NCBI GenBank assembly: GCA_018335295.1
Contig: JAGXKI010000006.1
Coordinates: forward strand, 4,443-68,442
Source: a bacterium
Lineage (GTDB): Bacteria; Acidobacteriota; Aminicenantia; Aminicenantales; Aminicenantaceae
Direction of reading: 5' to 3'
DNA length: 64,000 bases
The position numbers and the translations under genes were made by a program. Below, piece after piece: positions 1 through 54,518 of the stretch. The number at the start of each line of letters is the position of its first letter. Position 1 is the stretch's first letter. The notes beneath the pieces were generated by a model. That model was given only the letters and a program-made list of their open reading frames with translations. It was not told where the DNA came from and searched no databases.

Positions 1-1512
1 CTCTTCGATCAGCCTATCCACTCCTGTCATCAGGTCCCAATAATCTCCTCCTCCTATATCCCCCATGTTTCCTCTCAGAAATTCATCTCCATAATGCCTG
101 CTTCCTCTCACATTGGGACAAAGGGATACATAACCTAAGCTGGCGTAAATGTGATAAGTGGGGCTGAATCGATTGGTGAACACTCCCGCAGGTCCTCCAT
201 GAATATTGAGGATCAAAGGAAGATCTTTCTTTTCAGAAACATCTGAAGGCCAATACAGCAGTCCTTCCACAGAAAGTCCGTCTTTGCTTTTCCACTGGAT
301 TTTTTCCATCTGGGCCAGCTCTCTCTGTTGGACCCAAGGATTGGCCTGGGTCAATCTTTTTTCTTTGTAGGGTTCAAACTGAACCATCCAGATATCAGGA
401 GGAGTCTGATTATCGGAATAAACACAAGCAGCCTTCTCTTGGTCTGAAGACAGGGATTCAAACCACATCACTCCCTGCTTATGGGTCAACTTCTCGATGT
501 CTCTACTTCTCACATCCAACCGGTATACATTTCCTGTCGTCTTTTTTCCCCCGTTAAAAATGATGGATTCTCCATCCGGGCTCCATCTATAATTCCGAAT
601 ATCTCCTTTAAACTTTTCTGAAACCATCTCATACTCCCGGCTCTGAACCTCCATCACCCATATCTTGGAACTGGCCAGTTTCCATTTTTTGTCATCCGGA
701 GCGGTATAGGCGATTCGATTTCCTTTCGGTCCCCATCGAGGATTTCCCTCAGGAGCTTTATTCTGAGTTAACCGGCTCACTTCTCCTGTTCCTATGTCCA
801 CAACTGCCATTTCTCTGAGGTTAGAAGCATTCCTCCGGTTTTCTTTCCTGTAAATGTAAACAATCCGGTTCCCATCTGGAGATACATCATAATCCATAAT
901 CCGAATTTTTCCTTGAGTAATTTTTTCCTCTTCTTTGGTTTTTAAAGAAAACCTCCACAAGTCAGACCAACTTCCCCGTTTGTACTGGCCGTGGGGTCCT
1001 TCGTAGACATATATCACATCTTCGCCCTTTTCAATTTTCTCCTTTTCCTTTTCACTCTTGATATCATCCGCTAGAAAAATTATCCCCTGACTGTCTGGGC
1101 CCCAATGAAAAGATTTGACTCCAGACTTATGGTTTGTATAAGGAACGGCCTCACCTCCCTGGGTTCTCATCACCCATACTTGTCTTTTATCTCCCTTTTT
1201 TCTTAGAAAAGCCAGATATTGACCATCCGGAGACCATTGAGGGGAAGAATCTCCTTCTTCCCGAGTATACTTATAGGATTCTTCCCCGTCGGATGAAACA
1301 ATCCACAGATAACTTTCTCTCTTGTTTTTCTTCCAATTCAACTGAGTCTTTGTATAAACAATCCAATCACCATCTGGAGAAACCTGAGGATTGGAAACCC
1401 TCACCATGTTGATGGCATCATCCACGGTAAAGGGCTTATCGGCATAAGCATAATTCACAAAAATCAAACACAAAACCAATAGGATATAAATTTTATTCCA
1501 GCGAATTTTCAT
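1..1512 (-). CDS. S9 family (prolyl oligopeptidase/acylaminoacyl-peptidase-like) serine peptidase with signal peptide; 3' end runs off the window
   Basis: Not in the ORF track (open at the window edge). Manual translation from ATG 1512 (SD GGAGG): MKIRWNKIYILLVLCLIFVNYAYADKPFTVDDAINMVRVSNPQVSPDG..., propeller SPDG repeats, then LPLILNIHGGPAG...PNVRGSRHYGDEF...GGGDYWDLMTGVDRLIEE. The nucleophile Ser lies beyond the edge. Confidence 0.88.
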   Translation of the reverse strand, partial: MKIRWNKIYILLVLCLIFVNYAYADKPFTVDDAINMVRVSNPQVSPDGDWIVYTKTQLNWKKNKRESYLWIVSSDGEESYKYTREEGDSSPQWSPDGQYLAFLRKKGDKRQVWVMRTQGGEAVPYTNHKSGVKSFHWGPDSQGIIFLADDIKSEKEKEKIEKGEDVIYVYEGPHGQYKRGSWSDLWRFSLKTKEEEKITQGKIRIMDYDVSPDGNRIVYIYRKENRRNASNLREMAVVDIGTGEVSRLTQNKAPEGNPRWGPKGNRIAYTAPDDKKWKLASSKIWVMEVQSREYEMVSEKFKGDIRNYRWSPDGESIIFNGGKKTTGNVYRLDVRSRDIEKLTHKQGVMWFESLSSDQEKAACVYSDNQTPPDIWMVQFEPYKEKRLTQANPWVQQRELAQMEKIQWKSKDGLSVEGLLYWPSDVSEKKDLPLILNIHGGPAGVFTNRFSPTYHIYASLGYVSLCPNVRGSRHYGDEFLRGNMGDIGGGDYWDLMTGVDRLIEE

Positions 1513-1544
1513 AATATCCTCCTTACATTAATTATCCTGGATTA

Positions 1545-6677: not shown

Positions 6678-7688
6678 TCAGTTTATGACAATAATTATTC
6701 TGGAAAGATGAAATTTATTTTTATCTAAGAGCTGAATATCTGCGGATTGGCCTCCGATTTCCACACGGTAATCAATTCCCTCTTCTAAATGCTTGGGCAG
6801 GAGTTTCACTTTCTTAATGGTATTTGCTTCAACATCAGAAGCACTCACGGAGATAACCTCCGTCTTACGAAGGTCCACACGATTTTGATAGTCAGCAAAG
6901 CTCACTTCTTTCACGTTAATCCCGATGATACCGAGAAAAGAACCTTTAATTTTATTCTGAGCTTTCAATTCCTCACGGGTACCCACAAAATAATAGACTG
7001 AATTCAGTTTGGACTCCAGGTTTGCTTTCTGGTTTTTGAGTTCTGAAATATCCTGTTCCAAAGAAGATATCTGATCATTTAACTCTACTTTATCCTGTTC
7101 TAAATCTTCGATTTGGCTTCTCAATTGTTCACCCTTTTTCTCCAGGTCAGCAATTCGTTTTTCCAACTTGGCTTTCTCTTCTTTGATCTTTTTCTCTTTC
7201 AATCTTTTTACAGTTCCAGGAGAGACTTTGGCATCACCTTGAGTAACAAAAGTTCCGTAGACCTGACCGTAAAAATAGTGCCACACTTTGTATCCTATGT
7301 GGATGGGATGTAAGAGATGGGATTTGGCCAGCATATTTCTGGCTTCAGCTGCAGGAACATTTTTCTCTGTGGTAAGAAAGTCAAAGGCTAATCCCCAATG
7401 ACTATCTCCTCGTTGTACCACATTGGGTTCAGGAATCTGTTCCTCAAGATCTGCTTTCTCCTTTTCTAACTGAGCGATGGTCTTTTCTTTTTGGGACAAT
7501 TCTTTCTCTAGGTCAGATATCTGGGTTTCTAGTTTCTGGATTTCCTGTTCCGGTTCAGGAGGGGCTTCTTCTTCAGCTTGTTCTCCACCGCCACAGGAAT
7601 TGAGAAAGATAACTCCAGCTATTAAAACCAAATAAAAAGGGAAAGATAACCAACGTTTGGGGGCTAATCTTTTTATGTTCATTTTCAT
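6678..7688 (-). CDS. Coiled-coil lipoprotein with LysM-like insert and a C-terminal domain resembling Cbp1-family collagen-binding adhesins
   Basis: Lipobox-like FLNSC; heptad coiled coils; NVVQRGDSHWGLA (LysM-like start); C-terminal LNSVYYFVGTREELKAQ...DLRKTEVI...KKVKLLPKH...F..S..IIIVIN pattern, recalled from Bacteroides Cbp1-type proteins. SD GAGGAGG. Confidence 0.6.
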   Translation of the reverse strand: MKMNIKRLAPKRWLSFPFYLVLIAGVIFLNSCGGGEQAEEEAPPEPEQEIQKLETQISDLEKELSQKEKTIAQLEKEKADLEEQIPEPNVVQRGDSHWGLAFDFLTTEKNVPAAEARNMLAKSHLLHPIHIGYKVWHYFYGQVYGTFVTQGDAKVSPGTVKRLKEKKIKEEKAKLEKRIADLEKKGEQLRSQIEDLEQDKVELNDQISSLEQDISELKNQKANLESKLNSVYYFVGTREELKAQNKIKGSFLGIIGINVKEVSFADYQNRVDLRKTEVISVSASDVEANTIKKVKLLPKHLEEGIDYRVEIGGQSADIQLLDKNKFHLSRIIIVIN

Positions 7689-7942: not shown

Positions 7943-8452
7943 ATGAAAATGAACACCATTATCATGGCAGTGATTTTTGTAGCTCTTTTCATTACTGCCT
8001 GGTATTTCAAAGGATTGGGAGCTGCAGGAGAAGGAATCAAACAGGGTGGGTTGATGCTGAAAAAGACAGGGCTTTTACTTTTGATTGCTTTAGGAGTGGC
8101 CGGCTTGATACAGGTGTTGGTTCCCAAAGAACTCATTTCCCAGTACATGGGAGCGGCCTCAGGTTATAAAGGAATTCTAGTGGCTTGGCTTATCGGGGGC
8201 ATCATCCCCGGAGCTCCCTATGTGATACTCCCCTTAGGAGCCTCTCTTCTTTCCAGGGGAGCCGGGATAGCCCCAACCACCACCATGGTTCTTTCAGCTT
8301 CTCTCATAGGGGCCACCCGAATTCCTTATGAAATCGCATTCATCGGGTGGAAATTTACCATCGTCCGGATTTTAGGAGGGATGCTGCTTCCCCCTCTGGC
8401 TGGGTTTATTGTTTTAATGGTCAATCGAGTTCTTAAGCTCTACCCTTTCTAG
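7943..8452 (+). CDS. Small permease (DUF318/ArsP-like half-size membrane protein)
   Basis: Highly hydrophobic, GGIIPGAPYVILPLGASLLSRGAG, IGWKFTIVR. Confidence 0.7.
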   Translation: MKMNTIIMAVIFVALFITAWYFKGLGAAGEGIKQGGLMLKKTGLLLLIALGVAGLIQVLVPKELISQYMGAASGYKGILVAWLIGGIIPGAPYVILPLGASLLSRGAGIAPTTTMVLSASLIGATRIPYEIAFIGWKFTIVRILGGMLLPPLAGFIVLMVNRVLKLYPF

Positions 8453-9732
8453 GTGGAAAACTGCTTGAGTTTTTTCATAAAAGCTAATACCAGCAGACCC
8501 GCAAAAAACAGAGATGCCGATAAAATCAGAAAAAACAGGTGATGGGGAATTTTACTGTAGAAACTGGTGAAAATCCCGGCCGCCATGGCTCCCAAACCGG
8601 TGGCCCCAAACCACATTCCCATCATGGATCCTTGGAGACGAGGGGGAGCGACTTTGGAAGTGAACGAAAGTCCCATCGGGCTTACCAGGAGTTCGGCGAT
8701 GGTGATCACAAAGTAAGTGGAAATCAACCATCCTGGAGACATGATGTTCATGTCCTTATTTCCTCCAGATAAAGAAGCCGCCACCATTATTAAAAGAGCC
8801 ACGCTGGCCACAAACATACCCGTACATATTTTTGCGGCACTGGAGGGTTCCTTTTTCTTTTTGCGCAGGTAATTGAAAAGAGGAACGATCAGGATCAAGG
8901 TTAAGAGCACGATAAAGAAAGGATTGAAAAATTGATAAGTCTCTGCCTTCAAAAACGGATAATGGACCGTGGACCTCTGAGCAAAAAGGGTCAGAGCGGA
9001 CCCATTCTGATAAAAAGCCATCCAGAAGAAAAAGGCGATGGCAAAAAGGATGATCAGGGAAACGATTCTCATTTTCTCTTCAGTTCGACTCATCGGTTTC
9101 GACTCTTCTCCAGTGGACTGTTGGCTCTGACTCAGCATGGATCCTTTGGCGGCATATTCATAGGTTTTCTTTCCCAACCCTAATACAGCGATGGATACCA
9201 GCATCCCCACACTGGCTGCCGCAAAGCAGGCATTGAAACTATACTTGTTTCTTAAAAAGGTGGCCGCCAAAGGAGCCATCAAAGCTCCAATGTTAATGCC
9301 CATATAAAATATATTGTAGGCCGTATCTTTCAGCTTGCTTCCACTCTCGTAGAGATTCCCTACAACCACAGAAATGTTGGCTTTAAACAACCCACTTCCC
9401 AGAGCAATGGTGACCAGTCCGGCATAGAAAAAGAACAAACGGTCCAGAGAGGAGGCGGTCAAGCTGGCGTAGCCCACCGTCATGACCCCAGCCCCCATTA
9501 AAATGGTGTTTTTGGCCCCCAGCCATTTATCGGCGATATACCCTCCCAGAATGGGAAAAACATACACTGCCAATAAAAAGACCCCATAGATGACTCCTTT
9601 GATTTCGTCTCCCCAGCCAAAATCAAGGTCCATATACAAAACCAGTATGGCCATCATGGTGTAGAAGCCAAAACGCTCCCACATCTCTGTAAAAAATAAT
9701 GTTCTGAGTCCCTTTGGATGTTCTTTAAACAT
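8449..9732 (-). CDS. Proton-dependent oligopeptide transporter (POT/PTR family MFS)
   Basis: EMWERFGFYTM (ExxERFxYY motif variant), GLFKANIS, FYMGINIGA, ELLVSPMGLS. Confidence 0.92.
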   Translation of the reverse strand: MFKEHPKGLRTLFFTEMWERFGFYTMMAILVLYMDLDFGWGDEIKGVIYGVFLLAVYVFPILGGYIADKWLGAKNTILMGAGVMTVGYASLTASSLDRLFFFYAGLVTIALGSGLFKANISVVVGNLYESGSKLKDTAYNIFYMGINIGALMAPLAATFLRNKYSFNACFAAASVGMLVSIAVLGLGKKTYEYAAKGSMLSQSQQSTGEESKPMSRTEEKMRIVSLIILFAIAFFFWMAFYQNGSALTLFAQRSTVHYPFLKAETYQFFNPFFIVLLTLILIVPLFNYLRKKKKEPSSAAKICTGMFVASVALLIMVAASLSGGNKDMNIMSPGWLISTYFVITIAELLVSPMGLSFTSKVAPPRLQGSMMGMWFGATGLGAMAAGIFTSFYSKIPHHLFFLILSASLFFAGLLVLAFMKKLKQFST

Positions 9733-9933
9733 CTTTTCTCCCTTTCATTTTATGAACTCACAAGCTTGATTCACGGATATTGTTTTTTCTTTTTATCAAA
9801 GCTTGAGTTTTTGGTCAAATAAATTTTTATAATCCCTACCCTTTTTCAACAAACTAGAGGATTTTCACAAAAATTTTATTTGACAAAATTCATCCAGTTT
9901 AGTAGTCATCTATTTAAGAATAAGAAGGCGTTG

Positions 9934-10239
9934 ATGAAATTTTTGAAACCACCAAGCCTTTTCCTCATTTTGGTCTTGGTCTTTTTTAGTTGTGCTCCCG
10001 GGCCCAATGAACTCGAAAAAACACCCGATGAAGAAGGAATGGTCGCAGGATTCTGGAAAGGAATTTGGCACGGTCTGATCGCTCCCATAACCTTTGTCAT
10101 TTATGTTTTCTACAGGAATATCCATTTCTATGAAGTTCACAATAATGGCTTCTGGTACAATTTTGGTTTTATAATGGGAGCGGGGCTTTTTTTGAGCGGG
10201 GGCATTCTGGGGCATTCCGGGAAAAAACGACACAACTGA
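9934..10239 (+). CDS. Small conserved hypothetical lipoprotein/membrane protein
   Basis: Likely start ATG 9934 (the track starts at TTG 9880); lipobox-like FFSC; AGFWKGIWHGLIAP...NNGFWYNFGF. Confidence 0.7.
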   Translation: MKFLKPPSLFLILVLVFFSCAPGPNELEKTPDEEGMVAGFWKGIWHGLIAPITFVIYVFYRNIHFYEVHNNGFWYNFGFIMGAGLFLSGGILGHSGKKRHN

Positions 10240-10261: not shown

Positions 10262-12358
10262 ATGAAAAAGCTTCTTATCTTTATTTTGGCGATTTCTCTT
10301 TTCACTGTGACCTGCACCAACCAGGAAAAAAAACCTTTTTACAGTCAATGGAAAACTCCCCACGAGGTTCCTCCTTTCGACCGAATTCAAAAAAAACATT
10401 ATCTCCCTGCATTTAAAGAAGGAATCAAACAACACCAGAAGGAAATCGAAAAAATCGCTAACAACAATGAAGAACCCACATTTGAAAACACCGTTGCCGC
10501 GTTAGAAAGAAGCGGAGCTCTCCTACGTAAAGTCCGTAATGTCTTCAATGTACTGAACAGTTCCATGAGCGACGAAGAGATGCAACAAATCGATAAACAG
10601 GTCACTCCCCTTCTCTCCAACCATCAAGATGACATATTGTTCAACAAACTTCTTTTCCAGCGGATTCAGACTGTTTACAACCAGAGGAAAAATCTCAATT
10701 TAACCACTGAACAAAACACTCTTCTGGATAAATACTATAAAGATTTTATTCGGGGCGGCGCCAACTTGAGTGAAAAAAAGAAGGAGGAGCTGAGAAAAAT
10801 CAACGAAAAGCTCTCCAACCTTTCGAGGCAGTTCGGACAGCACATACTGAAAGAAAACAACCGGTACGATCTGGTGATCGATAACAAAAAAGACCTAGCC
10901 GGGCTTCCTCAATCGGTTATCGACGGAGCAGCCAAAGCAGCCGAGGATCGAGGTCATGAGGGAAAATGGGTGTTCACCCTGCACCGTTCCAGTATCACCC
11001 CTTTTCTCACCCATTCAGAAAAACGCGACCTTAGAGAAAAAATTTTCAAGGCTTATATAAACAAAGGGAACCACGGCGATGAGCTGGACAATAAGGAAAT
11101 CGTTTCCAAAATGGCCGCTCTCCGGGTCAAAAGAGCTCACCTCCTCGGGTACAAAACTCATGCCCACTACATCCTGGAAGAGAATATGGCCAAAAACCCC
11201 CAGAACGTTTACGATTTATTGCACAAAATATGGGAACCCGCCTTGGAAAAAGCCAAGAAGGAGTCGCAGGAACTCCAGTCTTTAATCAAAGAAAAAGGGA
11301 AAGATTTTAAACTACAGCCCTGGGATTGGTGGTATTATGCGGAAAAATTAAAAAAGCAAAAATTTGAACTCACTGACGAGATGCTGAAGCCCTACTTTGA
11401 ACTCAATAATGTAAGAAAGGGGGCCTTTTCCGTAGCCCATAAACTTTACGGCCTTCAGTTTGAAGAAAGAACAGACATTCCCAAATACCATCCCGATGTC
11501 CGGGTGTTTGAGGTAAAAGAATCCGACGGCTCTCATATCGGCATTTTTTATGGGGACTACTTTTCTAGAACTACCAAAAGAGGGGGAGCTTGGATGAACA
11601 GCTTCCGCAAACAGTACCGCCTGGAAGGAAAAGAAACCACCCCCATCGTGACCAATAATCTAAACCTCACCAAACCCAGCGGAGACCAACCGGTCCTTCT
11701 CACATTCAGCGAAGTCACCACTCTGTTTCACGAATTTGGCCATGCTCTCCACGGACTGCTTTCTGACTGTACTTATCCCCGATTGTCCGGCACTTCGGTC
11801 CCTAGAGATTTTGTGGAACTTCCTTCCCAGATCATGGAACACTGGGCCTCTGAACAGGAAGTTCTCAAAACCTACGCCAAGCACTATCAAACCGATGAAC
11901 CGATCCCCCAGGAATTGATCGATAAAATCAAAAAAGCAGGCCATTTCAACCAGGGATTTGCCACGGTGGAATACCTGGCAGCCGCCTTTCTGGATATGGA
12001 CTGGCATACTCTGAAAGAGCCCCCCGAACTCGAGGTGCTGGAGTTTGAAAACAAATCCATGGAAAATATAGGACTCATCCCCCAAATTGTGGTCCGCTAC
12101 CGGAGCCCTTATTTTCAGCATGTTTTTTCAGGCGGATATTCATCCGGATACTACAGCTATATCTGGTCGGAAGTTCTGGACTGCGACGCCTTCCATGCCT
12201 TCAAAGAAACGAGTTTGTTCGACCCGGAAACCGCCGCTTCATTCAGGAACAACATCTTGGAGAAAGGGGGAACCGAAAACCCCATGGTCCTCTACAAGCG
12301 CTTCCGGGGAAGAGAACCCCAAGTCAAGTATCTTTTGGAACACCGGGGACTCCAATAA
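10262..12358 (+). CDS. dcp: M3 family metallopeptidase (peptidyl-dipeptidase Dcp-like), lipoprotein signal
   Basis: FHEFGHALH zinc motif, KRGGAWM, DFVELPSQ, GYYSYIWSEVLD; SD GGAG. Confidence 0.9.
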   Translation: MKKLLIFILAISLFTVTCTNQEKKPFYSQWKTPHEVPPFDRIQKKHYLPAFKEGIKQHQKEIEKIANNNEEPTFENTVAALERSGALLRKVRNVFNVLNSSMSDEEMQQIDKQVTPLLSNHQDDILFNKLLFQRIQTVYNQRKNLNLTTEQNTLLDKYYKDFIRGGANLSEKKKEELRKINEKLSNLSRQFGQHILKENNRYDLVIDNKKDLAGLPQSVIDGAAKAAEDRGHEGKWVFTLHRSSITPFLTHSEKRDLREKIFKAYINKGNHGDELDNKEIVSKMAALRVKRAHLLGYKTHAHYILEENMAKNPQNVYDLLHKIWEPALEKAKKESQELQSLIKEKGKDFKLQPWDWWYYAEKLKKQKFELTDEMLKPYFELNNVRKGAFSVAHKLYGLQFEERTDIPKYHPDVRVFEVKESDGSHIGIFYGDYFSRTTKRGGAWMNSFRKQYRLEGKETTPIVTNNLNLTKPSGDQPVLLTFSEVTTLFHEFGHALHGLLSDCTYPRLSGTSVPRDFVELPSQIMEHWASEQEVLKTYAKHYQTDEPIPQELIDKIKKAGHFNQGFATVEYLAAAFLDMDWHTLKEPPELEVLEFENKSMENIGLIPQIVVRYRSPYFQHVFSGGYSSGYYSYIWSEVLDCDAFHAFKETSLFDPETAASFRNNILEKGGTENPMVLYKRFRGREPQVKYLLEHRGLQ

Positions 12359-13538: not shown

Positions 13539-13539
13539 A

Positions 13540-15432: not shown

Positions 15433-15433
15433 A

Positions 15434-20415: not shown

Positions 20416-20423
20416 TGAAAAGA

Positions 20424-41161: not shown

Positions 41162-41367
41162 ATTTTATATTTTTTGGGTAAAAGAATAAATATTTTTTAA
41201 TATAATTATTTGAGTTTCAATGAAATATTTCAAAATAACTTTTTTAGGTAAAAATTTTCTTTTATAAACTTTAAAAATTTGATATTTAACATATTAATGA
41301 TCATATCTTTTAGCTTTTTTCCTATTTATTTACATCTTCCATCCAAATTCTGTAAACAGGAGTTAAA

Positions 41368-43656
41368 ATGAACCTCCAAAAAAATTGTTTATTCCTCCTC
41401 ATTCCCCTGATTCTCTGGGGATCCTGTAAAGCCCCACAAAAAAGAGAAATAACCAAAAAAGATTATAAAAGGGCCGAAAGTTTTCTCCCCCGCAACCTGG
41501 AGAAAAAAGCGTACAACCTGAAAGTATCCCCTCACTGGATAATGGAAAGCTCTTCTTTTTGGTATAAAGTCAATACCAAAGAAGGAAAAAAATTCTGGAA
41601 AGTTGACCCTGAAGAAAAAGTAAAAAAACCCGCTTTCGATCACAAGAAATTAGCCAAAGCTCTATCCAGAAAAACCGGAGAAACTTATACTTATAAAGAC
41701 CTGCCTTTTGACACGATTGAGTTTGTAGAAAAATATAAGATTAAATTCAAAGTCGATGACCAAACTTGGATTGCTGATTTGAAAGATTATACCCTGAAAC
41801 AAAAAGAAAAGAAGAAAGAAAAAGAGGAAAAGCTCTCTCCTGATGGGAAATGGGTAGCCTTTTCCAAAGATTACAACCTTTTTATCCGCTCTAAAAAAAC
41901 AGGACAAGAAATTCAATTAACCACCAAAGGTCAAAAACTCTACGAGTACGCCAGCTCTTTGAAATGGGGAGATTTGATTGAAGGAGAAAATGGCAAAATT
42001 CCCTCCCGTTTCATGATTAAATGGTCTCCTGACTCCAAAAAAATTTATACTCATATACTGGATTTAAGAGAAGCTAAGAAGCTTTATTTACTCAAATCTG
42101 CAGATAAAGAAGGTTATAGGGCTAAACTTTTCTCCTACTATCGTGCTCTTCCTGGAGAAAAAAATTCAGGTCGTCTCATTCCGGTGATTATTAATGTGGA
42201 AACTCAAAAAGAGGTAAAAATTGACCTGGAACCTATCCCCCGCTTCTTGGGTTTAGATATCCATTGGTTTAAAAACAGCCGGAAGCTTCATGCTCGAAAA
42301 TATGACCGAGGTTACAAAGCTGTAAACTTACTAGAAATAAATGCTCAAACCGGAGAAGTAAAAAACGCAATAAAAGACGAAAACAAGACCTATGTAGAAA
42401 ACTCTCTCTGTGAGTACAAATTTTTAGAGGAGTCAGGAAAAACTTTCCTCACTTCAGAACGGGATGGATGGAATCATATCTATTTGTATGACTGGAATAA
42501 AGGTGAACTCATTCGTCAAATTACCGAAGGGAAATTTGTGGTTCTAGATATTGTTTACGCAGACAAAGAAAAAGAGAATATTTTCTTTACAGCGGTAGGA
42601 AGGGAAAAAAATCGTGATCCCTATTTAGTCCATCTTTACAGGGTAGGTTTTGATGGATCCGACCTAAAACTACTCACTCCTGAACATGCTTACCATGAGA
42701 TGAACTCCTCTCCAAATCATAAATATTTTGTGGATAACTATTCCCGTGTAGACTCTCCTCCTCAATCTGTACTCCGAAAACTGGAAGATGGCTCCATTCA
42801 TATGAAGTTAGAAGAAGCTGATGTCAAGGATGTAATGGCCCTAGGTTGGGACTCTCCCGAACCGTTTAAAGTCAAAGCCGCTGATGGCAAGACTGATATT
42901 TATGGGCTGATATGGAAGCCTTCTAACTTTGACCCTACGAAAAAATACCCAGTTATTGATCAAACCTATACCGGACCTCAAGCCGTAAATACTCCTAAAA
43001 CTTTTACTCGAGCTTTATTTCACTCCAATACCTCTTTAGTAGAGTTGGGGTTTATCGCTATAACTGTAGATGGCCGAGGCACGGCCCACCGCTCCAAAGA
43101 ATTCCATAATTTTTCTTACCACAACCTGGGAGGAGGATGCACAGACCATATTACCGCCATTAAAAAATTATCAAAGGAACATGATTACATGGATACAGAG
43201 AGGGTAGGAATTTACGGCCACTCTGCAGGCGGGTATGATGCAGCTCATGCTCTCCTTAAGTGGCCAGATTTTTATAAAGTGGGAGTTTCTTCCTCTGGAA
43301 ATCACCATCACAGGATGGCCAAAGCCTGGTGGCCTGAGATGTACATGGGATATCCTGTAGAAAAATACTACAAAGAACAGTCTAACATTAATATGGCAAA
43401 AAACCTTAAAGGAAATCTGCTGTTAGTCCATGGTGATATGGATGAAAATGTGAATCCAGCTTCTACCATAAGACTGGCTCATGCTCTGATCAAGAATAAG
43501 AAAGACTTTGACCTTTTAATCCTTCCCAACAATCATCACGGCTATAAAGGAGTGTTTAAAGATTATTTTATAAGAAAAAGATGGGACTATTTTGTAGAAC
43601 ATCTCCACTCCATTCAACCCCCTTCTTACACTTTAACTACTCCTAAAAAGGAATAG
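41368..43656 (+). CDS. S9B dipeptidyl-peptidase IV family lipoprotein
   Basis: Lipobox-like WGSC; WSPDS; YTGPQ; GHSAGG nucleophile; GDMDENV; NNHHG. Confidence 0.9.
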   Translation: MNLQKNCLFLLIPLILWGSCKAPQKREITKKDYKRAESFLPRNLEKKAYNLKVSPHWIMESSSFWYKVNTKEGKKFWKVDPEEKVKKPAFDHKKLAKALSRKTGETYTYKDLPFDTIEFVEKYKIKFKVDDQTWIADLKDYTLKQKEKKKEKEEKLSPDGKWVAFSKDYNLFIRSKKTGQEIQLTTKGQKLYEYASSLKWGDLIEGENGKIPSRFMIKWSPDSKKIYTHILDLREAKKLYLLKSADKEGYRAKLFSYYRALPGEKNSGRLIPVIINVETQKEVKIDLEPIPRFLGLDIHWFKNSRKLHARKYDRGYKAVNLLEINAQTGEVKNAIKDENKTYVENSLCEYKFLEESGKTFLTSERDGWNHIYLYDWNKGELIRQITEGKFVVLDIVYADKEKENIFFTAVGREKNRDPYLVHLYRVGFDGSDLKLLTPEHAYHEMNSSPNHKYFVDNYSRVDSPPQSVLRKLEDGSIHMKLEEADVKDVMALGWDSPEPFKVKAADGKTDIYGLIWKPSNFDPTKKYPVIDQTYTGPQAVNTPKTFTRALFHSNTSLVELGFIAITVDGRGTAHRSKEFHNFSYHNLGGGCTDHITAIKKLSKEHDYMDTERVGIYGHSAGGYDAAHALLKWPDFYKVGVSSSGNHHHRMAKAWWPEMYMGYPVEKYYKEQSNINMAKNLKGNLLLVHGDMDENVNPASTIRLAHALIKNKKDFDLLILPNNHHGYKGVFKDYFIRKRWDYFVEHLHSIQPPSYTLTTPKKE

Positions 43657-51050: not shown

Positions 51051-51929
51051 ATGAGTACAAAATCAAATCTCACCGAAATTCATACAGCGGTTCTGTTATT
51101 CGGATTTGCAGGGCTTTTTGGTAAATGGCTCATGTTATCCCCCTTTATCATTGTCCTCGGCCGAGTCCTTTTTGCCAGTTTGGCTCTGTGGATTTTTATC
51201 CAGTTTTCTTCTTGGAACCTCAAAGTCACACCCCCTAAAAATTACTTATATTTTTTACTCCTGGGGCTAATCCTTTCGGTTCATTGGGCCTCCTTCTTTC
51301 ACTCCATTCAAATTTCCACAGTGGCGGTAGGGCTTCTCTCTTATTCCAGTTTTCCCTTGTTCACCACTTTTCTCGAACCAGTACTGCTTAAAGAAAATTT
51401 AGAACTCCCCCGCATTTTTTATGCTCTTTTGTGTATATTTGGAGTTTTTTTGATCATCCCCCGTTTTGAACTGAGCAGTGCCACTTACAGAGGGGTGCTT
51501 TGGGGACTCTTCTCCGGGCTTTCTTTCTCTCTACTCACCATACTGAATCGTAAGCTGACCCAAAAATTTTCTTATTTATTGATTGCTTTTTACCAAGACC
51601 TTTTTGCTGTATTTTTTCTCCTCCCCTTTTTGTTTCTCCTCAAGCCTTCTTTTCAGCTTCAAGAGATCTTACTTTTGGTTGTACTGGGGGTGATCTGCAC
51701 AGCAGGTTCTCATACTTTATTCATCAAAGGAATAAAGGGAGTGCCCGCTCAAACGGCGGCCATCATCAGCTCTCTTGAGCCTGTTTATGGAATCATACTT
51801 GCTTATCTTTTTCTGCATGAAATTCCAGCCCTCCGAACCATAGGGGGAGGTCTTATCATTTTGGGAGCTGTCTTCCTGATCAGTCTCCAAGAGAGTCGAT
51901 CAACTCCCCACCTTCCCCCGGCTCAATAA
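51051..51929 (+). CDS. EamA/DMT family transporter
   Basis: Ten-TM pattern with two EamA repeats; LEPVYG. Confidence 0.85.
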   Translation: MSTKSNLTEIHTAVLLFGFAGLFGKWLMLSPFIIVLGRVLFASLALWIFIQFSSWNLKVTPPKNYLYFLLLGLILSVHWASFFHSIQISTVAVGLLSYSSFPLFTTFLEPVLLKENLELPRIFYALLCIFGVFLIIPRFELSSATYRGVLWGLFSGLSFSLLTILNRKLTQKFSYLLIAFYQDLFAVFFLLPFLFLLKPSFQLQEILLLVVLGVICTAGSHTLFIKGIKGVPAQTAAIISSLEPVYGIILAYLFLHEIPALRTIGGGLIILGAVFLISLQESRSTPHLPPAQ

Positions 51930-51960: not shown

Positions 51961-53130
51961 TCAATCTTTCTTTTTTACCTTTTTCTTCTCCAATTTCTTC
52001 TCTTCCTTCTGGAGTCTCTCTTTCAGCTTTTCTTTTTCATTTTGATGGAGTTTTTTCAACTTTTCCAGTTCCTTCTTATATTTTTTCCCAATCTCCTTCT
52101 TTTCCTCCCCTTTCAACTCTTCCTTTTTCTCCTGCCACTCCTTTTTGAGGCGTTCCAGTTCCTTCTCTTGGCTCCTCTCCAGAAGTTTCATCTGGCGCTT
52201 ATGGATCTCTCCCAAGATCTTCTCTTCTTTTTCTGAAGGAGCTCTCTTCTCTAAGCGACCCACAGGACTTTGGGGAATTTCTTTCTCCACTTCTTTTTTT
52301 CTTATAACATTTTTGGGGGCAGCCGTTTCATTTTCTTTGACCTTGGGTTTAAATAGTTCCACTTTATCCACTTTAACCTTGGTCCCACCAGGATCGGAAG
52401 TTTTCTGGAGTTTATGTTTAGTGATCTTTCTCTGGGTAATCCTTTCCAGAACATTCACATCAATCCCTTTATTTATGACCCGGTTGCCCTGGCGGATGAT
52501 ATCTGTTTTTCTCACCGTGAATTTGACGAGGTTCTGATTTCGTTCAACGGGAAGAATATAGCGGTTTAAACGGGGCTCAAAGAAATAAGAGCCTTCCACA
52601 AATATCCAATAAGAATGATCCAGCGAGTATGGTAAAGACTGAATTCTGACACTCCATCCCCGGACCGCTCCAGGAGGAATCGGGGCCCACCCCACATAAA
52701 GATTGCTTTTTCTCCAGGTCACCCAAGCAGGTCCCCACCGGTTCTCCGGAACCCAGAACCAACCGAGACTTTGAGTCCATCCCCAACGGCCATAATGAAA
52801 AGGAGCCCAACCCCATTCAAAATGAGAGGCCCAGGTCCATCCATAATCCGTCCACGTCCATCGGCCGTATGTATAAGGGCGCCATTTGTACAGATGAACT
52901 CGAGGTGTCCACACATACCCATAAGAAGGATGAGAAAACCATCTCCCATGGGAAGATAGGTATTCATAAAAAAAGGAGGTGTCATACCGGGAGATGGGTT
53001 CGGGCGGGGGTTCTTTATAGGTTTCTTCCTGGGAAGGAGGTGGTTCCTCGACAGGATAAGGGACATAAATCACACAGCTGGCCGCAAACAATAGAAAAAA
53101 AAACAAAGGGATCATACTTTTTTCTTTCAT
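51961..53130 (-). CDS. DUF6600-like Trp/Gly-rich lipoprotein with highly charged C-terminal coiled coil
   Basis: Likely start 53130 (MKEKSMIPLFFFLLFAASC lipobox); FYEYLSSHGRW...YGYVW.P...W.PY.YGRW.W...GW.W...WGWAPFHYGRWG...WGPAWV.W; Lys/Glu-rich tail. Confidence 0.7.
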   Translation of the reverse strand: MKEKSMIPLFFFLLFAASCVIYVPYPVEEPPPSQEETYKEPPPEPISRYDTSFFYEYLSSHGRWFSHPSYGYVWTPRVHLYKWRPYTYGRWTWTDYGWTWASHFEWGWAPFHYGRWGWTQSLGWFWVPENRWGPAWVTWRKSNLYVGWAPIPPGAVRGWSVRIQSLPYSLDHSYWIFVEGSYFFEPRLNRYILPVERNQNLVKFTVRKTDIIRQGNRVINKGIDVNVLERITQRKITKHKLQKTSDPGGTKVKVDKVELFKPKVKENETAAPKNVIRKKEVEKEIPQSPVGRLEKRAPSEKEEKILGEIHKRQMKLLERSQEKELERLKKEWQEKKEELKGEEKKEIGKKYKKELEKLKKLHQNEKEKLKERLQKEEKKLEKKKVKKKD

Positions 53131-53312
53131 TCTCTTAACCCCTTTTATCCGATTCTTTGATTTCACACAATCCTCAAAGAAAAGTCAATCCCTTTTTGGG
53201 TTTATTTTCCCATCGGAAAAGAGGTTCGGAAATAAATATGCGTCTCAAACTCCTGGTCCTCTTCTTCCACAAACGATATGAAGTTATACGGGGCTCCTCA
53301 CAAAGAGCTTTC

Positions 53313-54518
53313 TCACTCAAACTTCTTGAATACTTTTCTAATTTTTTTCAAAGCCCAACTGAGGTCTTTCTGTTTCACCACTAAGGGAGGGGCAAACCGA
53401 ATGACATTTTCATGAGTCTCTTTACACAGGAGTCCTTCCTCTTTCAGGGCTTCACAAAAGGGTCGGGCTCCTCCTGCTTCTGGCTTCAACTCTATTCCAA
53501 TGAGCAAACCTTTTCCCCGGGTTTCTTTAATGTGTCGACTTTGAATTTTTTTGAGCTCATGGAGGAAATACTCTCCTTGTTCCGCGCAATTATCCACTAA
53601 ATTTTCTTCCTGGATCACCCGAATGGATTCCCGGGCCACCGCACAGGCTAAGGGGTTTCCTCCGAAAGTGGAACCATGACTTCCAGGGGTAAACAGTCCC
53701 AGGACTTCTCTCATCGAAAGGACCGCCGAAACCGGATAGCATCCTCCCCCTAGAGACTTACCCAGTATCTGAACATCGGGTTTGACATTTTCATAATCAC
53801 AGGCCATCAGTTTTCCGGTTCTTCCCAGGCCTGTCTGAATCTCATCAGCCATGAAGAGGATGTTCTTTTTTTCACATATCTCTTTGGCTCTCTTCAAATA
53901 ACCCTCCGGAGGCACAATGATACCTGCTTCAGCCTGGATTGGTTCAAAAAGAAAAGCGGCGGTATTCGGGTTGATGGCATTTTCCAAAGCCCCTAGATCC
54001 CCGTACGGAATCACTGTAAACCCAGGTGTATGAGGTCCAAAATCTTTTTTATAGGAGGGGTCCGTGGAAAAACTGATAATGGTGACGGTTCGTCCATGAA
54101 AATTATTCGAACACACAATAATTTCAGCCTTATCCAAGGGGATTTCCTTTTTTTTATATCCCCACATCCGGGCGGCTTTCAACGCGGTTTCCACGGCTTC
54201 AGCCCCCGAATTCATGGGAAGGACCATCTCATATCCGGTCAAATCACACAGTTCTTTAGCCAGCCGCGGCCATTGATCGTTTCGGAATGCTCGAGAGGTC
54301 AGTGTCAATTGTTTCGCCTGACTGATTATAGTTTTCACAATGCGGGGATGGGAATGGCCTTGATTCACAGCGGAATAAGAACTTAAAAAATCAAGGTATT
54401 TATTTCCTTCCACATCCCAAACCCAAATTCCCTTTCCTTTGGTGAGAACCACATCTAAAGGATGATAATTCCGAGCTCCGTATAAGTCTTCTAGGTCCAC
54501 AAAAAATTTTGTATCCAT
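53313..54518 (-). CDS. rocD: Ornithine--oxo-acid aminotransferase
   Basis: True start ATG 54518 (SD AAGGAG): YGARNYHPL, SSYSAVNQGH, PMNSGAEAVETA, FHGRT, EPIQAEAG, DEIQTGLGRTG, LGKSLGGG, HGSTFGGNP. Confidence 0.93.
   Translation of the reverse strand: MDTKFFVDLEDLYGARNYHPLDVVLTKGKGIWVWDVEGNKYLDFLSSYSAVNQGHSHPRIVKTIISQAKQLTLTSRAFRNDQWPRLAKELCDLTGYEMVLPMNSGAEAVETALKAARMWGYKKKEIPLDKAEIIVCSNNFHGRTVTIISFSTDPSYKKDFGPHTPGFTVIPYGDLGALENAINPNTAAFLFEPIQAEAGIIVPPEGYLKRAKEICEKKNILFMADEIQTGLGRTGKLMACDYENVKPDVQILGKSLGGGCYPVSAVLSMREVLGLFTPGSHGSTFGGNPLACAVARESIRVIQEENLVDNCAEQGEYFLHELKKIQSRHIKETRGKGLLIGIELKPEAGGARPFCEALKEEGLLCKETHENVIRFAPPLVVKQKDLSWALKKIRKVFKKFE

Follow-up and report, generated by a model that had tools for sequence, protein, structure and literature searches.

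In the clostridial locus, HypD is paired with proC, feeding Stickland proline reduction. HypR of Sinorhizobium meliloti is a GntR-family hydroxyproline (Hyp) regulator, and the DPP-IV and prolyl tripeptidyl peptidase types of Porphyromonas gingivalis are linked with the trimming of collagen-derived peptides. Within the proline-racemase family, enzymes of the dehydratase type have been defined in the literature by a Cys-Thr pair; such a dehydratase stands beside an OCD-family reductase in the T3LHypD-Pyr2C reductase cluster of T. litoralis and in bacterial t3HypD/OCD neighbourhoods (PMC4141209, PMC4364671, PMC4113996). Peptidases and transporters have already been reported as neighbours of this pair (Zhao et al., 2014, PMC4113996). 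The t3HypD/OCD clusters described so far are tied either to proline dehydrogenases or to the epimerase route of aerobic 4-Hyp catabolism; in the literature searched, none was found described with a glycyl-radical HypD and, as the original prediction for this locus had supposed, no paper linked radical HypD with the 3-Hyp pathway.

Both pathways occur in the stretch of 64,000 nt analysed here (the window). We consider it likely that ~23.1-43.7 kb of the window form a regulated module for the catabolism of peptides that contain proline and hydroxyproline in an obligately anaerobic Aminicenantes-like host. This ~20-kb cluster apparently unites proline-specific peptidases with 4- and 3-hydroxyproline disposal enzymes and one common promoter/operator motif (Table 1). 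It is a variant arrangement of already known pathways, and several uncultured phyla show the same combination. The original prediction had drawn a dual-Hyp module across positions 1 to 54,518. Its core (HypD with activase, trans-3-Hyp dehydratase with Pyr2C reductase, Pro exopeptidases, transporter, GntR) is upheld because the parts recur in unrelated gene orders in other phyla and two units have a common motif, but the 54-kb extent is not.

Table 1. Genes and promoter/operator elements of the window. Cut-offs are given in brackets after the bit scores.
Feature	Position	Strand	Characteristics
S9 propeller peptidase	1-1512	-	C-terminus truncated by window edge; outside core
Coiled-coil lipoprotein	6678-7688		NF052320 44 bits (90), match in coiled-coil region
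POT transporter	8449-9732	-	Outside core
M3 peptidase, Dcp-like	10262-12358	+	HEFGH motif; outside core
M16a, exported	20364-21779	+	Pfam; HILEH
M16b, exported	21786-23135	+	Pfam; no zinc motif
M24B Xaa-Pro peptidase ('PepP')	23139-24530	-	Pfam; AMP_N + M24
GntR/FCD transcription regulator	24581-25276	-	Pfam
SDH, fused beta/alpha Fe-S L-serine-dehydratase family	25401-26966	-	Pfam SDH_alpha; 17 nt 3' of DPP4a
DPP4a, DPP-IV (S9B)	26984-29242	-	Pfam; GWSGGG at residue 614; heads DPP4a-SDH-GntR-PepP unit
Second promoter/operator copy	29451-29474	-	CTGATATATCACAT core, -35 TTGATA; PWM 15.4; overlaps predicted minus-strand promoter 29498-29469
Anaerobic sulfatase-maturating radical-SAM/SPASM enzyme	29706-30842	+	TIGR03942 427 bits (349); CNMHCTYC at residue 20
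Proline-racemase family, Cys98/Thr262 (trans-3-Hyp dehydratase, well supported)	31001-32029	-	Pfam
OCD/mu-crystallin-family reductase	32044-33012	-	Pfam; 14 nt upstream of dehydratase
Cys-type S1 sulfatase, GlcNAc-6-sulfatase-like	33091-34647	-	Pfam; CAPSR at residue 86
NSS-family Na+-coupled amino-acid transporter	34777-36237	-	Pfam; best PDB match 4us3, 169 bits
Weak operator-like site (tentative)	36482-36498	+	TGATATATTTTATTTCA; NSS/mutarotase divergent region; one mismatch to TGATAT-N5-ATATCA; overlaps predicted plus-strand mutarotase promoter 36481-36509
Galactose-1-epimerase (aldose mutarotase), exported	36565-37728	+	Pfam; NF008277 371 bits (240)
HypD, glycyl-radical trans-4-hydroxy-L-proline dehydratase	37788-40151	-	NF043068 1337 bits (1100)
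HypDAE, HypD-activating radical-SAM enzyme	40154-41107	-	CPLGCSWC at residue 45; 2 nt upstream of HypD
Main promoter/operator element	41125-41148	-	Perfect palindrome TGATATATAATATATCA, 0 mismatches; 18 nt 5' of activase start codon; PWM 22.3; overlaps predicted extended -10 promoter 41161-41133
Weaker operator-like site	41280-41303	+	One mismatch; PWM 11.5; 65 nt 5' of divergent S9B
Second S9B peptidase	41368-43656	+	Pfam; GHSAGG at residue 617; divergent from HypDAE
rocD	53313-54518	-	Passes TIGR01885; outside core
TldD, N-terminus	63568-end		Outside core

Hydroxyproline enzymes

Gene identities were derived from Pfam, NCBIfam and PDB searches of the window, which confirmed nearly all of the first gene list, the exception being a sub-threshold Cbp1 match. 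Judged by its sequence, the glycyl-radical enzyme is a bona fide HypD, scoring above the equivalog cut-off, matching the C. difficile HypD (6vxc) with 1097 bits and retaining all ten residues whose importance mutagenesis or structure established (H160, D278, S334, D339, F340, C434, E436, Y450, T645, G765). The best NCBIfam match of its activase is NF043069 (394 bits, cut-off 425), and TIGR02494 is passed. As in the C. difficile HypD/HypD-AE system (6vxc; PMC7077986), the activase is adjacent and conversion of trans-4-Hyp to P5C is expected. Unlike that system, the locus has no adjacent P5C reductase gene, and no P5C-consuming enzyme (ProC, P5C dehydrogenase) was found in the window; the context consists of GntR, M24B and S9B peptidases and the 3-Hyp pathway, and lies in uncultured non-Firmicute phyla.

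The distance from HypD to the Cys/Thr gene, predicted as ~5 kb, is 5.8 kb. The solved structures nearest to the Cys/Thr and OCD-family proteins are both from T. litoralis, namely the T3LHyp dehydratase 6r76 (472 bits) and the Pyr2C reductase 6t3e (171 bits), and the Cys/Thr pair is present in 83 of 83 homologues examined. Both proteins stay under their NCBIfam equivalog cut-offs (401 < 540 and 243 < 417, respectively). These scores would be in keeping with a role outside 3-Hyp, either proline/ornithine interconversion (with rocD) or the turnover of a cis-3-Hyp or pipecolate-derivative imino acid, as would the diversity of the OCD family (alanine dehydrogenase, ketimine reductase, cyclodeaminases) and the OCD homologues found near HypD without a dehydratase in three loci (L032, L033, L049). 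We regard such a role as highly improbable, however, given the Cys-Thr dehydratase signature, the 472 bits to a characterised T3LHyp dehydratase, a best OCD structure that is the partner reductase of the same archaeon, and the dehydratase-OCD pairing itself, which is a known and experimentally validated neighbourhood (PMC4113996). Across 70 loci, an OCD gene also stands directly beside the dehydratase more often than any other gene. The identity of the trans-3-Hyp dehydratase is well supported by these comparisons, and the OCD-family protein is a probable delta1-pyrroline-2-carboxylate reductase. In contrast to the known t3HypD/OCD clusters, the operon of this pair also contains genes for an NSS transporter and for an exported sulfatase.

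Peptidases and transporter

The M24B peptidase matches human prolidase best in the PDB (216 bits versus 172 for E. coli aminopeptidase P), and its NCBIfam matches are ambiguous and under the cut-offs; its sequence does not distinguish an aminopeptidase P from a prolidase. It is cytoplasmic, without a signal or lipoprotein N-terminus. DPP4a, with a signal peptide and lipobox, is a probable lipoprotein; in the PDB it comes closest to 5olj (Dipeptidyl peptidase IV, 402 bits), which we take to be the P. gingivalis enzyme. The second S9B peptidase, probably also a lipoprotein and DPP-IV/prolyl-tripeptidyl-peptidase-like, matches 2d5l (presumably the P. gingivalis prolyl tripeptidyl peptidase) with 185 bits versus 176 for 5olj, which separates the tripeptidyl from the dipeptidyl type weakly. 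Like their P. gingivalis counterparts, both are predicted to act as exported X-Pro/X-X-Pro exopeptidases. The M16 pair, of which only the first member carries HxxEH, is convergent to PepP in the window and in three relatives (L003, L004, L013); a PWM scan of the window found no operator motif upstream of it. The pair is peripheral and possibly part of the module.

The NSS protein, whose best match 4us3 is presumably MhsT, is a candidate Pro/Hyp importer. A related run, DPP4-amidohydrolase-HypDAE-HypD-M24-NSS in L007, ends in a 51%-identical orthologue and has a GntR at its other side. The SDH protein (sda_alpha 220 bits, cut-off 243; sda_beta 124 bits, cut-off 161; 4rqo only 99 bits) appears to be a divergent member of the L-serine-dehydratase family.

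Linkage in related loci

We compared 160 related loci; HypD served as the anchor for 80 genome loci and the dehydratase for 80 metagenomic loci. HypD and the dehydratase are found no more than 10 kb apart, in about eight gene orders. HypD or its activase occurs within 10 kb of the dehydratase in 9/80 loci (L084, L088, L101, L102, L108, L110, L111, L151, L159), and the dehydratase directly follows HypD in 3/80 (L034, Calditrichota; L068, Zixibacteria; L078, Caldisericaceae). Chance alone would give 0.2-0.4 co-occurrences in 789 kb of flanks (P(>=9) <1e-9; P(>=5) <6e-5 with lineages collapsed). Motif and synteny instances are not independent, much coming from one clade (Aminicenantes). The MAGs that combine HypD, dehydratase, M24B and GntR carry the labels of at least four phyla, and some of the arrangements are single-strand operons. 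Frequent companions in loci with HypD and dehydratase are an M24B Xaa-Pro peptidase, a dedicated GntR and other Pro-specific peptidases; S37/S28 and C69 peptidases and EamA, NSS or SSF transporters are found inside such operons. M24B orthologues occur in 16/80 HypD and 11/80 dehydratase loci (27 in all), and in four loci (L112, L118, L132, L145) the gene adjoins the dehydratase with gaps of 1-6 nt.

Synteny across relatives had been named as a check of the prediction: the HypD-dehydratase linkage recurs in relatives, but it is not stable in the window's own lineage. Four loci with the same backbone (L002, L003, L004, L013) contain only HypDAE-HypD-PepP, the ~13-kb block with the 3-Hyp genes being absent, and among the closely syntenic loci GntR was detected in L004 and L008. 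The HypD/3-Hyp pairing is facultative because several closely syntenic loci do not have the 3-Hyp block.

A common promoter/operator motif

A conserved element, TTGACA-N17-TGATATATT within TGATAT-N5-ATATCA, lies 5' of HypDAE or GntR in ~40 loci. In the window, one copy precedes HypD-activase and another precedes DPP-IV-SDH-GntR-PepP. The former is the top PWM match of the window and aligns with the elements of the ~40 relatives; the latter is the second-best independent match and aligns with relatives' HypD/GntR promoters. The top three independent matches all fall in the cluster's two regions of divergent promoters, and the 17-mer with at most one mismatch occurs three times in the window versus 0.17 expected, a count reached in 0/100 shuffles. 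Across 2.1 Mb of related loci, a PWM score of at least 15 was found at ~40 HypDAE/GntR promoters and at only two other sites, one directly 5' of an SSF-transporter-GntR operon (L021) and one in an apparently similar arrangement (L030). The site between the NSS and mutarotase genes is tentative because its PWM score is below 8. Co-regulation of the NSS-sulfatase-OCD-dehydratase unit is not established because the motif match there is weak.

The GntR was found only in HypD loci: 16/16 loci with a protein of its cluster also have HypD, usually in the order GntR-HypDAE-HypD. From this co-occurrence we infer that it binds the palindrome, and we consider it a candidate Hyp-responsive regulator of the cluster. 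GntR-family Hyp regulators such as HypR offer a parallel, with a GntR/FCD protein in a Hyp cluster and a palindrome at catabolic promoters, orthology not being implied; here, by contrast, the predicted operator lies over an extended -10 box, and the targets would be a radical HypD and peptidases, with Hyp as the presumed ligand.

The motif, holding a canonical -35 and an extended -10 box, could be no repressor site but simply a strong promoter that has been conserved. This would suit an organism without any dedicated system, a peptidase-rich protein fermenter in which a HypD operon happens to lie next to housekeeping peptidases and to a 3-Hyp/sulfatase operon that was acquired separately. The relatives without the 3-Hyp block, the unrelated sulfatase, maturase, mutarotase and SDH-like protein within it, promoter and terminator scan counts in the window no different from shuffles, and the reported richness of Aminicenantes MAGs in peptidases (PMC6258724) all fit such a scenario. 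It is nevertheless decidedly unlikely, since HypD, dehydratase, M24B and GntR are combined in about eight orders and at least four phyla, the half-sites around the -10 box are conserved, and the motif is essentially limited to HypD/GntR promoters.

Extent of the module and the collagen hypothesis

In its widest form, the original prediction saw the whole of 1-54.5 kb as a dedicated collagen/gelatin system, with Cbp1-like binding, eight peptidases, POT/NSS transport, dual Hyp salvage and rocD. 3-Hyp is chiefly a collagen residue, all of the named genes exist, and a GlcNAc-6-sulfatase with its maturase would suit an animal extracellular-matrix substrate. Peptidases are over-represented (8 of ~51 genes; binomial P ~1e-4 to 1e-2, for an assumed, not measured, genomic fraction of 3-6%). 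The outlying genes argue against such a system. S9 (1-1512), Cbp1-like, POT, M3, rocD and TldD carry no motif and are not linked to HypD or the dehydratase in the 160 loci, the exceptions being one weak S9-like match (L092, ~5 kb from the dehydratase) and, in three loci, rocD-like aminotransferases at a distance; rocD lies 13 kb away, and TldD, which had been counted within 1-54,518, starts beyond that range. The 'Cbp1-like lipoprotein' is a coiled-coil lipoprotein with less than half of the required score. Housekeeping genes are interspersed, as had been noted (rnpB, two tRNA genes, nuoJ-N, 2-oxoacid:ferredoxin oxidoreductase, recR and dnaX, which cut the outlying genes off from the core, and ybaB), and other Aminicenantes-like loci reshuffle these blocks. 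A Pfam search detected no M9 or U32 collagenase in the window, again in agreement with the prediction. We therefore delimit the real unit, from linkage and motif, to ~23.1-43.7 kb, and a collagen system of the full extent is very unlikely.

Proposed pathway and substrate

For the ~20-kb module, we propose that the exported S9B lipoproteins (DPP-IV- and tripeptidyl-type), perhaps with the M16 pair, would cut X-Pro/X-Hyp di- and tripeptides off oligopeptides. Peptides and free imino acids would be imported, the NSS protein being a candidate for free Pro/Hyp, and the cytoplasmic M24B peptidase would liberate Pro, 4-Hyp and 3-Hyp. HypD, activated by its radical-SAM partner, would convert trans-4-Hyp to P5C, whereas the Cys/Thr dehydratase would convert trans-3-Hyp to pyrroline-2-carboxylate and the OCD-family reductase would turn the latter into L-proline; these activities are predicted from the enzyme identities, well supported for the 3-Hyp pair. 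GntR/FCD probably binds TGATAT-N5-ATATCA over the extended -10 box of the HypDAE-HypD and DPP4a-SDH-GntR-PepP promoters; if it binds both, at least these two units would form one regulon. Localisation fits the model: signal or lipoprotein N-termini are present on the peptidases other than M24B, on the sulfatase and on the mutarotase, and are missing from the Hyp enzymes and M24B.

Animal collagen or other Hyp proteins are candidate sources of the peptides, with Hyp-rich plant or algal glycoproteins as an alternative source of 4-Hyp. A real module with non-collagen substrates (plant/algal Hyp-rich glycoproteins, or free Hyp and Hyp-peptides of mixed necromass, the mutarotase pointing to glycosylated Hyp) would agree with the origin of relatives in peat, lake and marine sediment, groundwater and digesters, with the mutarotase orthologues in 16/80 HypD loci (mostly Aminicenantes, near sugar-utilisation genes), with the weak motif over the mutarotase promoter, and with other Aminicenantes in which HypD abuts an MFS sugar transporter, FGGY kinase, fucose-isomerase-like gene and Zn-ADH. 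These sugar genes, however, lie on other strands and may simply reflect synteny within the clade; neither in the window nor in the annotated neighbours was a glycoside hydrolase for Hyp-arabinosides or Hyp-galactosides detected, the sulfatase is closest to GlcNAc-6-sulfatases active on animal glycans, and we know of no role of the 3-Hyp dehydratase/reductase pair for plant-type 4-Hyp. We consider this non-collagen reading unlikely.

Three genes of the cluster were missing from the first gene list, namely the GlcNAc-6-sulfatase, the anaerobic sulfatase maturase and the exported galactose mutarotase. We take them to be co-located passengers whose link to the Hyp genes is unexplained. The sulfatase resembles the Bacteroides thetaiotaomicron GlcNAc-6-sulfatase (5g2v, 629 bits) in its Cys-type CAPSR motif, its predicted export (N-terminus RRDFLK...SC, Tat signal and lipobox) and a bona fide anSME nearby. 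It differs in lying in an imino-acid operon and not in a polysaccharide utilisation locus, without glycoside hydrolases or lyases; this arrangement is conserved in no related locus, and no sulfatase adjoins HypD or the dehydratase in the 160 loci. An orthologue of the maturase adjoins HypDAE in four of them (L010, L027, L053, L074).

Organization of the hydroxyproline module

By sequence, the module at about 23.1-43.7 kb comprises HypD with its activase, a dehydratase of the Cys-Thr type next to an OCD-family reductase, three peptidases (two exported S9B enzymes and one cytoplasmic M24B enzyme), a transporter of the NSS family, a regulator of the GntR/FCD type and a shared promoter element. 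We consider it probable that the module as a whole serves the regulated catabolism of Pro/Hyp-containing peptides. Each enzyme is from a known family and the chemistry is not new; what is apparently new is that, in uncultured anaerobes, two known Hyp routes recurrently occur fused with Pro-specific peptidases and are apparently co-regulated. The glycyl-radical enzyme, the anaerobic sulfatase maturase (anSME) and the ferredoxin oxidoreductase fit an anaerobic host.

The gene map was built from six-frame open reading frames (ORFs), a Pfam search of about 50 proteins, tRNA and Rfam scans, and NCBIfam and PDB searches. No riboswitch was found in the cluster, the Rfam scan giving only rnpB and two tRNAs. 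For comparison, all window proteins were searched by tblastn against 160 related loci (given by L numbers), namely 80 HypD-anchored genome loci and 80 dehydratase-anchored metagenome loci among the matches listed, and all ORFs of these loci were clustered.

Features of the window (positions in nt)
Feature	Position	Strand	Remark
S9 propeller peptidase	1-1512	-	cut by window edge
glmS, DegT aminotransferase, NusG-like gene, CN-hydrolase, response regulator	between 1512 and 6678	-	
Coiled-coil lipoprotein	6678-7688	-	
ArsP-type permease ORF	7943-8452	+	
POT transporter	8449-9732	-	
119-aa ORF	9880-10239	+	lipoprotein-like N-terminus
M3 peptidase	10262-12358	+	Dcp-like
tRNA-Met	between M3 and nuoJ		
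nuoJKLMN	12742-18459	+	
RNase P RNA	18517-18892	-	class A, 296 bits
Sigma-54 response regulator	18809-20263	-	
M16 pair	20364-23135	+	
M24B 'PepP'	23139-24530	-	
GntR/FCD regulator	24581-25276	-	
Fused L-Ser-dehydratase-like protein	25401-26966	-	SDH-like
DPP-IV	26984-29242	-	S9B, DPP4a
Anaerobic sulfatase maturase (anSME)	29706-30842	+	
Proline-racemase-family gene	31001-32029	-	'dehydratase' in the text
OCD-family gene	32044-33012	-	
Sulfatase	33091-34647	-	
NSS transporter	34777-36237	-	
Galactose mutarotase	36565-37728	+	
HypD	37788-40151	-	
HypD activase (HypDAE)	40154-41107	-	
Second S9B peptidase	41368-43656	+	
PFK, four-subunit 2-oxoacid:ferredoxin oxidoreductase, recR, ybaB, dnaX	after 43656	-	
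EamA	51051-51929	+	
DUF6600 protein	51961-53166	-	
rocD	53313-54518	-	
tRNA-Ser, rluD, lgt, lspA, ileS, nadB, nadC	after rocD	-	
LPG-synthase-like gene	before TldD	+	
TldD N-terminus	from 63568	+	

HypD and its activase

The HypD protein scores 1337 bits against the curated equivalog NF043068 (cut-off 1100) and lies far under the cut-offs of the other specific glycyl-radical enzyme models (sulfopropanediol dehydratase, CutC, PFL). A full-length alignment was obtained with C. difficile HypD (6vxc, 1097 bits), for which structure and mutagenesis have defined the functional residues His160, Asp278, Ser334, Asp339, Phe340, Cys434, Glu436, Tyr450, Thr645 and Gly765 (Backman et al., PMC7077986). All ten are common to both enzymes, with residue numbers lower by three in the window protein, including the Cys loop C431-V-E433 (Cys434-x-Glu436) and the glycyl-radical residue G762 in RVAGYS (Gly765). 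The activase gene is located 2 nt upstream; its product passes the TIGR02494 threshold and carries CX3CX2C at residue 45, and its top specific model, T4HPD activase, gives 394 bits, below the cut-off of 425. We assign the two genes as a HypD/activase pair with a predicted activity on trans-4-Hyp, which the HypD family converts to P5C (PMC7077986).

In three HypD-like enzymes of related loci (L077:9717-12089, L151:4738-7104 and L159:6207-8570), C-V-T replaces the C-V-E motif of the Cys loop (GPSGCVTISAFG). They are 65-67% identical to the window HypD and retain the other nine residues. Since the E436Q substitution abolishes the activity of C. difficile HypD, the mechanism or the substrate of this subclade may be different. 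The variants of L151 and L159 sit in single operons of GntR, activase, glycyl-radical enzyme, PepP and dehydratase genes.

Orthologues of 787 aa, with 69-71% identity and all ten functional residues, are encoded in ten loci (L019, L048, L050, L058-L060, L066, L067, L073, L080) from MAGs labelled Asgard (Heimdall-/Promethearchaeota), Bathyarchaeia and Nanoarchaeota. PFL-family glycyl-radical enzymes have been considered possible hydrocarbon-activating enzymes in some sediment surveys (10.1101/536078, PMC6258724); the present analysis offers a sequence-based means of annotating the ~787-aa enzymes in sediment MAGs as HypD.

The trans-3-Hyp branch

The dehydratase contains Cys98 in TMCGH and Thr262 in DRSPTGTG. 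Such a Cys-Thr pair marks trans-3-Hyp dehydratases, whereas racemases and epimerases have Cys-Cys (PMC4364671); all of the 83 homologues examined carry Cys/Thr. The best solved relative is the trans-3-Hyp dehydratase of T. litoralis (6r76, 472 bits; PMC9309405), with human L3HYPDH (7qpo, 298 bits) and the top proline racemase entry (7pb3, 297 bits) ranking lower. The top NCBIfam match is still NF045511, yet the protein stays under both curated equivalog cut-offs (NF045511, 401 vs 540; NF047722, 221 vs 550), for which reason we grade it as a probable trans-3-Hyp dehydratase and not as a certified member. This exact protein is on record only in run SRR14023877, on one 16.5-kb contig.

T. litoralis also provides the best structure for the product of the OCD gene, which lies 14 nt upstream, namely its Pyr2C reductase (6t3e). 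The protein falls under the curated cut-offs of PRK06141 (188 vs 322), PRK07340 (169 vs 266) and LhpI (133 vs 400); judged from gene context and the best PDB match alone, it is probably a delta1-pyrroline-2-carboxylate (Pyr2C) reductase. Enzymes of the dehydratase family convert trans-3-Hyp to Pyr2C, which Pyr2C reductases then turn into L-proline (PMC4364671, PMC4141209, PMC4113996).

Neighbourhoods of dehydratase, OCD, peptidase and transporter genes have already been described (Zhao et al. 2014, PMC4113996). The original prediction regarded the pairing of a radical HypD with the 3-Hyp route as undescribed, and we likewise found no link between glycyl-radical HypD and 3-Hyp or Pyr2C genes, nor any account of Hyp metabolism in Aminicenantes, in the searchable literature, which covers few subscription journals.

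Peptidases, regulator and sulfatase

Both S9B genes encode a DPPIV_N propeller and an S9 catalytic domain with a GxSxGG nucleophile motif (GWSGGG at 614, GHSAGG at 617). Among PDB entries, the M24B protein matches human prolidase (216 bits) better than E. coli aminopeptidase P (172), and in NCBIfam aminopeptidase P (204) ranks above prolidase (185), both below cut-off. We classify it on its sequence as a cytoplasmic M24B Xaa-Pro peptidase, either a prolidase or an aminopeptidase P. The regulator combines a GntR wHTH domain (PF00392) with an FCD effector domain (PF07729). Between its gene and DPP-IV lies the SDH-like gene, whose 521-aa product, a beta/alpha fusion belonging to the Fe-S L-serine-dehydratase family, remains under both NCBIfam subunit cut-offs and gives 99 bits to 4rqo; its substrate is conceivably another hydroxy-amino acid.

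The sulfatase gene is located within the NSS-OCD-dehydratase operon, with anSME and an exported galactose mutarotase nearby. It encodes a Cys-type enzyme (CAPSR at residue 86, CxPxR motif) with a Tat signal and a lipobox, and its nearest relative is a Bacteroides GlcNAc-6-sulfatase (629 bits). The radical-SAM/SPASM gene is classified as a bona fide anSME (TIGR03942, 427 bits, above 349). A role of the sulfatase in the 3-Hyp pathway, e.g., on a sulfated imino acid, was rejected because the protein is exported and GlcNAc-6-sulfatase-like and because none of the 160 loci has a sulfatase in the company of HypD or the dehydratase. In four other Aminicenantes loci (L010, L027, L053, L074), orthologues of anSME and the mutarotase flank HypDAE, with no sulfatase within 10 kb.

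A conserved promoter element

A perfect palindrome, TGATATATAATATATCA, is present upstream of HypDAE (41125-41141). The 17-mer TGATAT-N5-ATATCA precedes GntR or HypDAE in many relatives, its full form being TGATAT[C/G]TGATATATTA[C/G]ATATCA. Alignment (A1) revealed a whole promoter, consisting of TTGACA, 17 nt and an extended -10 box TGATATATT, with the half-site TGATAT upstream and ATATCA downstream of the -10 box. Such an element could be nothing more than a conserved promoter.

A PWM built from 24 distinct sites was run over 2.1 Mb of related loci. With a score of at least 15, it found 34 matches no more than 400 bp away from the start of HypDAE or GntR and six more at HypDAE promoters overlooked by the ORF clustering, about 40 related promoters in total. 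Two matches lie elsewhere (L021:7497 and L030:7427). Next to the HypD operon of L021 there is an operon of an SSF (Na+/solute symporter) gene and GntR, and the match is located 38 nt upstream of it, an indication that the regulon includes a transporter. The arrangement in L030 appears to be the same.

The three best independent PWM matches of the window are 41125-41148 (score 22.3), 29451-29474 (15.4), in the divergent region of DPP-IV and anSME, and 41280-41303 (11.5), which is closer to the second S9B gene. Allowing at most one mismatch, the 17-mer occurs three times in the window against 0.17 expected, a count reached in none of 100 shuffles; the third of these sites (36482-36498, NSS/mutarotase region) overlaps the predicted mutarotase promoter and has a poor PWM score. 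Each of the two strong sites overlaps with a predicted minus-strand promoter, that of HypDAE in one case and that of DPP-IV in the other; the predictions come from a generic promoter/terminator scan whose counts equal those of shuffles and which was used solely for this coincidence.

We infer that the element is a repressor-type operator, for which the co-inherited GntR/FCD regulator is the most plausible binding protein. This operator would tie HypDAE-HypD and DPP4a-SDH-GntR-PepP into one regulon, perhaps together with the second S9B gene and the mutarotase. It provides a concrete, testable candidate regulator-operator pair for uncultured anaerobes.

Linkage in related loci

Among the matches listed from GTDB species genomes, the closest relatives of HypD (at most 77% identity) come from MAGs labelled Candidatus Aminicenantes. 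Several Aminicenantes MAGs share the backbone of the window, with dnaX-ybaB-recR-oxidoreductase on one side and M16, a sigma-54 regulator and nuoN on the other, so that an Aminicenantes-type bacterium is the most probable source of the window. The closest syntenic loci (L002, L003, L004, L013) carry HypDAE-HypD-PepP in this housekeeping backbone, followed by the M16 pair in L003, L004 and L013; L008 and L012 show the same core on shorter contigs. A GntR gene upstream of the core was detected only in L004 and L008 of these six.

The synteny check proposed with the original prediction had a divided outcome. A ~13-kb block with the 3-Hyp genes (mutarotase, NSS, sulfatase, OCD, dehydratase, anSME, DPP-IV, SDH-like), which stands between HypD and GntR-PepP in the window, is present in none of the six loci, but the linkage of HypD and dehydratase recurs in unrelated gene orders. 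By chance, 0.2-0.4 such co-occurrences are expected (789 kb of flanks), giving P(≥9) < 1e-9, or P(≥5) < 6e-5 with related loci collapsed.

Gene orders in related loci
Locus	Arrangement
L088, L102 (Aminicenantes-like backbone)	PepP<HypD<HypDAE<GntR, divergent from dehydratase
L151, L159	GntR-HypDAE-GRE-PepP-dehydratase(-OCD-EamA), one strand
L101, L110, L111	HypDAE-HypD-EamA-dehydratase-S37/S28 peptidase
L108	HypDAE-HypD-dehydratase-C69 dipeptidase
L084, L034 (Calditrichota), L068 (Zixibacteria)	HypD and dehydratase neighbours
L078 (Caldisericaceae)	HypD-x-dehydratase-OCD-PepP-S37
L007 (candidate division B38)	GntR / DPP4-amidohydrolase-HypDAE-HypD-M24(Creatinase_N type)-NSS

Only the activase accompanies HypD more often than the M24B orthologue does (16 of 80 HypD loci). 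The M24B orthologue is also found in 11 of the 80 dehydratase loci, abutting the dehydratase in L112, L118, L132 and L145. The GntR subfamily occurs in HypD loci only, among the 160. Orthology of the window's EamA with that of the HypD-EamA-dehydratase operons was not supported (about 30% identity over at most 87 residues).

The original prediction had extended a collagen/gelatin utilisation system over positions 1-54518. The genes it listed are all in the window, with TldD outside this interval, and the list omitted three genes from the middle of the cluster (sulfatase, anSME and mutarotase). The extent itself did not hold up. POT, M3, the Cbp1-like gene and TldD, as well as the sulfatase, occur in none of the 160 loci; rocD finds just aminotransferase paralogues of 31-33% identity in three loci, and the S9 gene a single 31%-identical match (L092). 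As POT, M3, S9, rocD and TldD have neither the motif nor meaningful linkage, they were rejected as module members.

Proposed pathway and substrate

The exported S9B enzymes, perhaps together with the M16 pair, would trim X-Pro(Hyp) units, which would then be imported. The cytoplasmic M24B peptidase would free the imino acid, the two dehydratases would direct both isomers of Hyp to P5C and proline, and GntR would sense a pathway metabolite. No proC or P5C dehydrogenase gene was found in the window.

The structural proteins of animals and plants contain hydroxyproline as a major component with a distinctive chemistry, and 4-Hyp has sources in plants and algae. The oxygen-free mineralisation of hydroxyproline outside the gut is poorly known. 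Judging from this locus and its relatives, both Hyp isomers seem to be handled in abundant, uncultured phyla of sediments by a compact and regulated module, which also holds the peptidases needed for freeing Hyp from Pro-rich peptides; this is a testable addition to anaerobic hydroxyproline metabolism.

In agreement with the original prediction, the Pfam search of about 50 window proteins revealed no M9/U32 collagenase or gelatinase. The 'Cbp1-like' label of the coiled-coil lipoprotein rests on 44 bits against a cut-off of 90 for family NF052320, over the coiled-coil segment only, a score for family membership and not for collagen binding. The label 'collagen utilisation system' is not earned, given the lack of a collagenase in the window, an adhesin match below threshold, outlying genes without linkage, and the plant and algal sources of 4-Hyp. 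The 3-Hyp route and the GlcNAc-6-sulfatase are compatible with an animal-matrix substrate and are no proof of it. Hyp-glycosides (extensin) are left as a rival substrate, which we did not adopt: the recurrent HypD neighbours in other Aminicenantes include a fucose-isomerase-like gene, an FGGY kinase, an MFS sugar transporter, a Zn-ADH and a BNR/sortilin protein, but these genes lie on other strands than HypD and no Hyp-arabinoside hydrolases were found among the annotated recurrent neighbours.

A joint reading, which is tentative and on balance doubtful, goes beyond the Pro/Hyp-peptide module. A Hyp-responsive GntR regulon, shared by several anaerobic phyla that are uncultured (labels of the loci: Aminicenantes, Calditrichota, Zixibacteria, Caldisericaceae and candidate division B38), would unite an oxygen-sensitive radical 4-Hyp dehydratase, a cofactor-free 3-Hyp dehydratase/Pyr2C reductase and Pro/Hyp-specific exopeptidases into one complete anaerobic 'hydroxyproline-peptide' pathway. 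Here it would have recruited a GlcNAc-6-sulfatase and its maturase, the host being specialised on animal extracellular matrix (collagen and sulfated glycans) in anoxic sediment. It would follow that the PFL-family enzymes of ~787 aa in sediment MAGs, those of Asgard archaea included, are HypD and not hydrocarbon-activating.

Other features of the window

The last ~84 nt of the sigma-54 response regulator ORF are overlapped by the RNase P RNA on the same strand. The genes nuoJ-K-L-M-N stand isolated after tRNA-Met, with nuoA-I absent from the window; a nuoJ-N block is likewise located downstream of the Hyp cluster in L088. The 529-nt intergenic region between POT and M3 is filled by the 119-aa ORF. 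The ArsP-type permease ORF is possibly truncated, since it is 169 aa long and covers positions 15-134 of a 294-position profile. The DUF6600 protein, a lipoprotein, has a core rich in Trp and Tyr and a long tail rich in Lys and Glu, and is conserved beside EamA and dnaX in L002 and L003 (46-47% identity).
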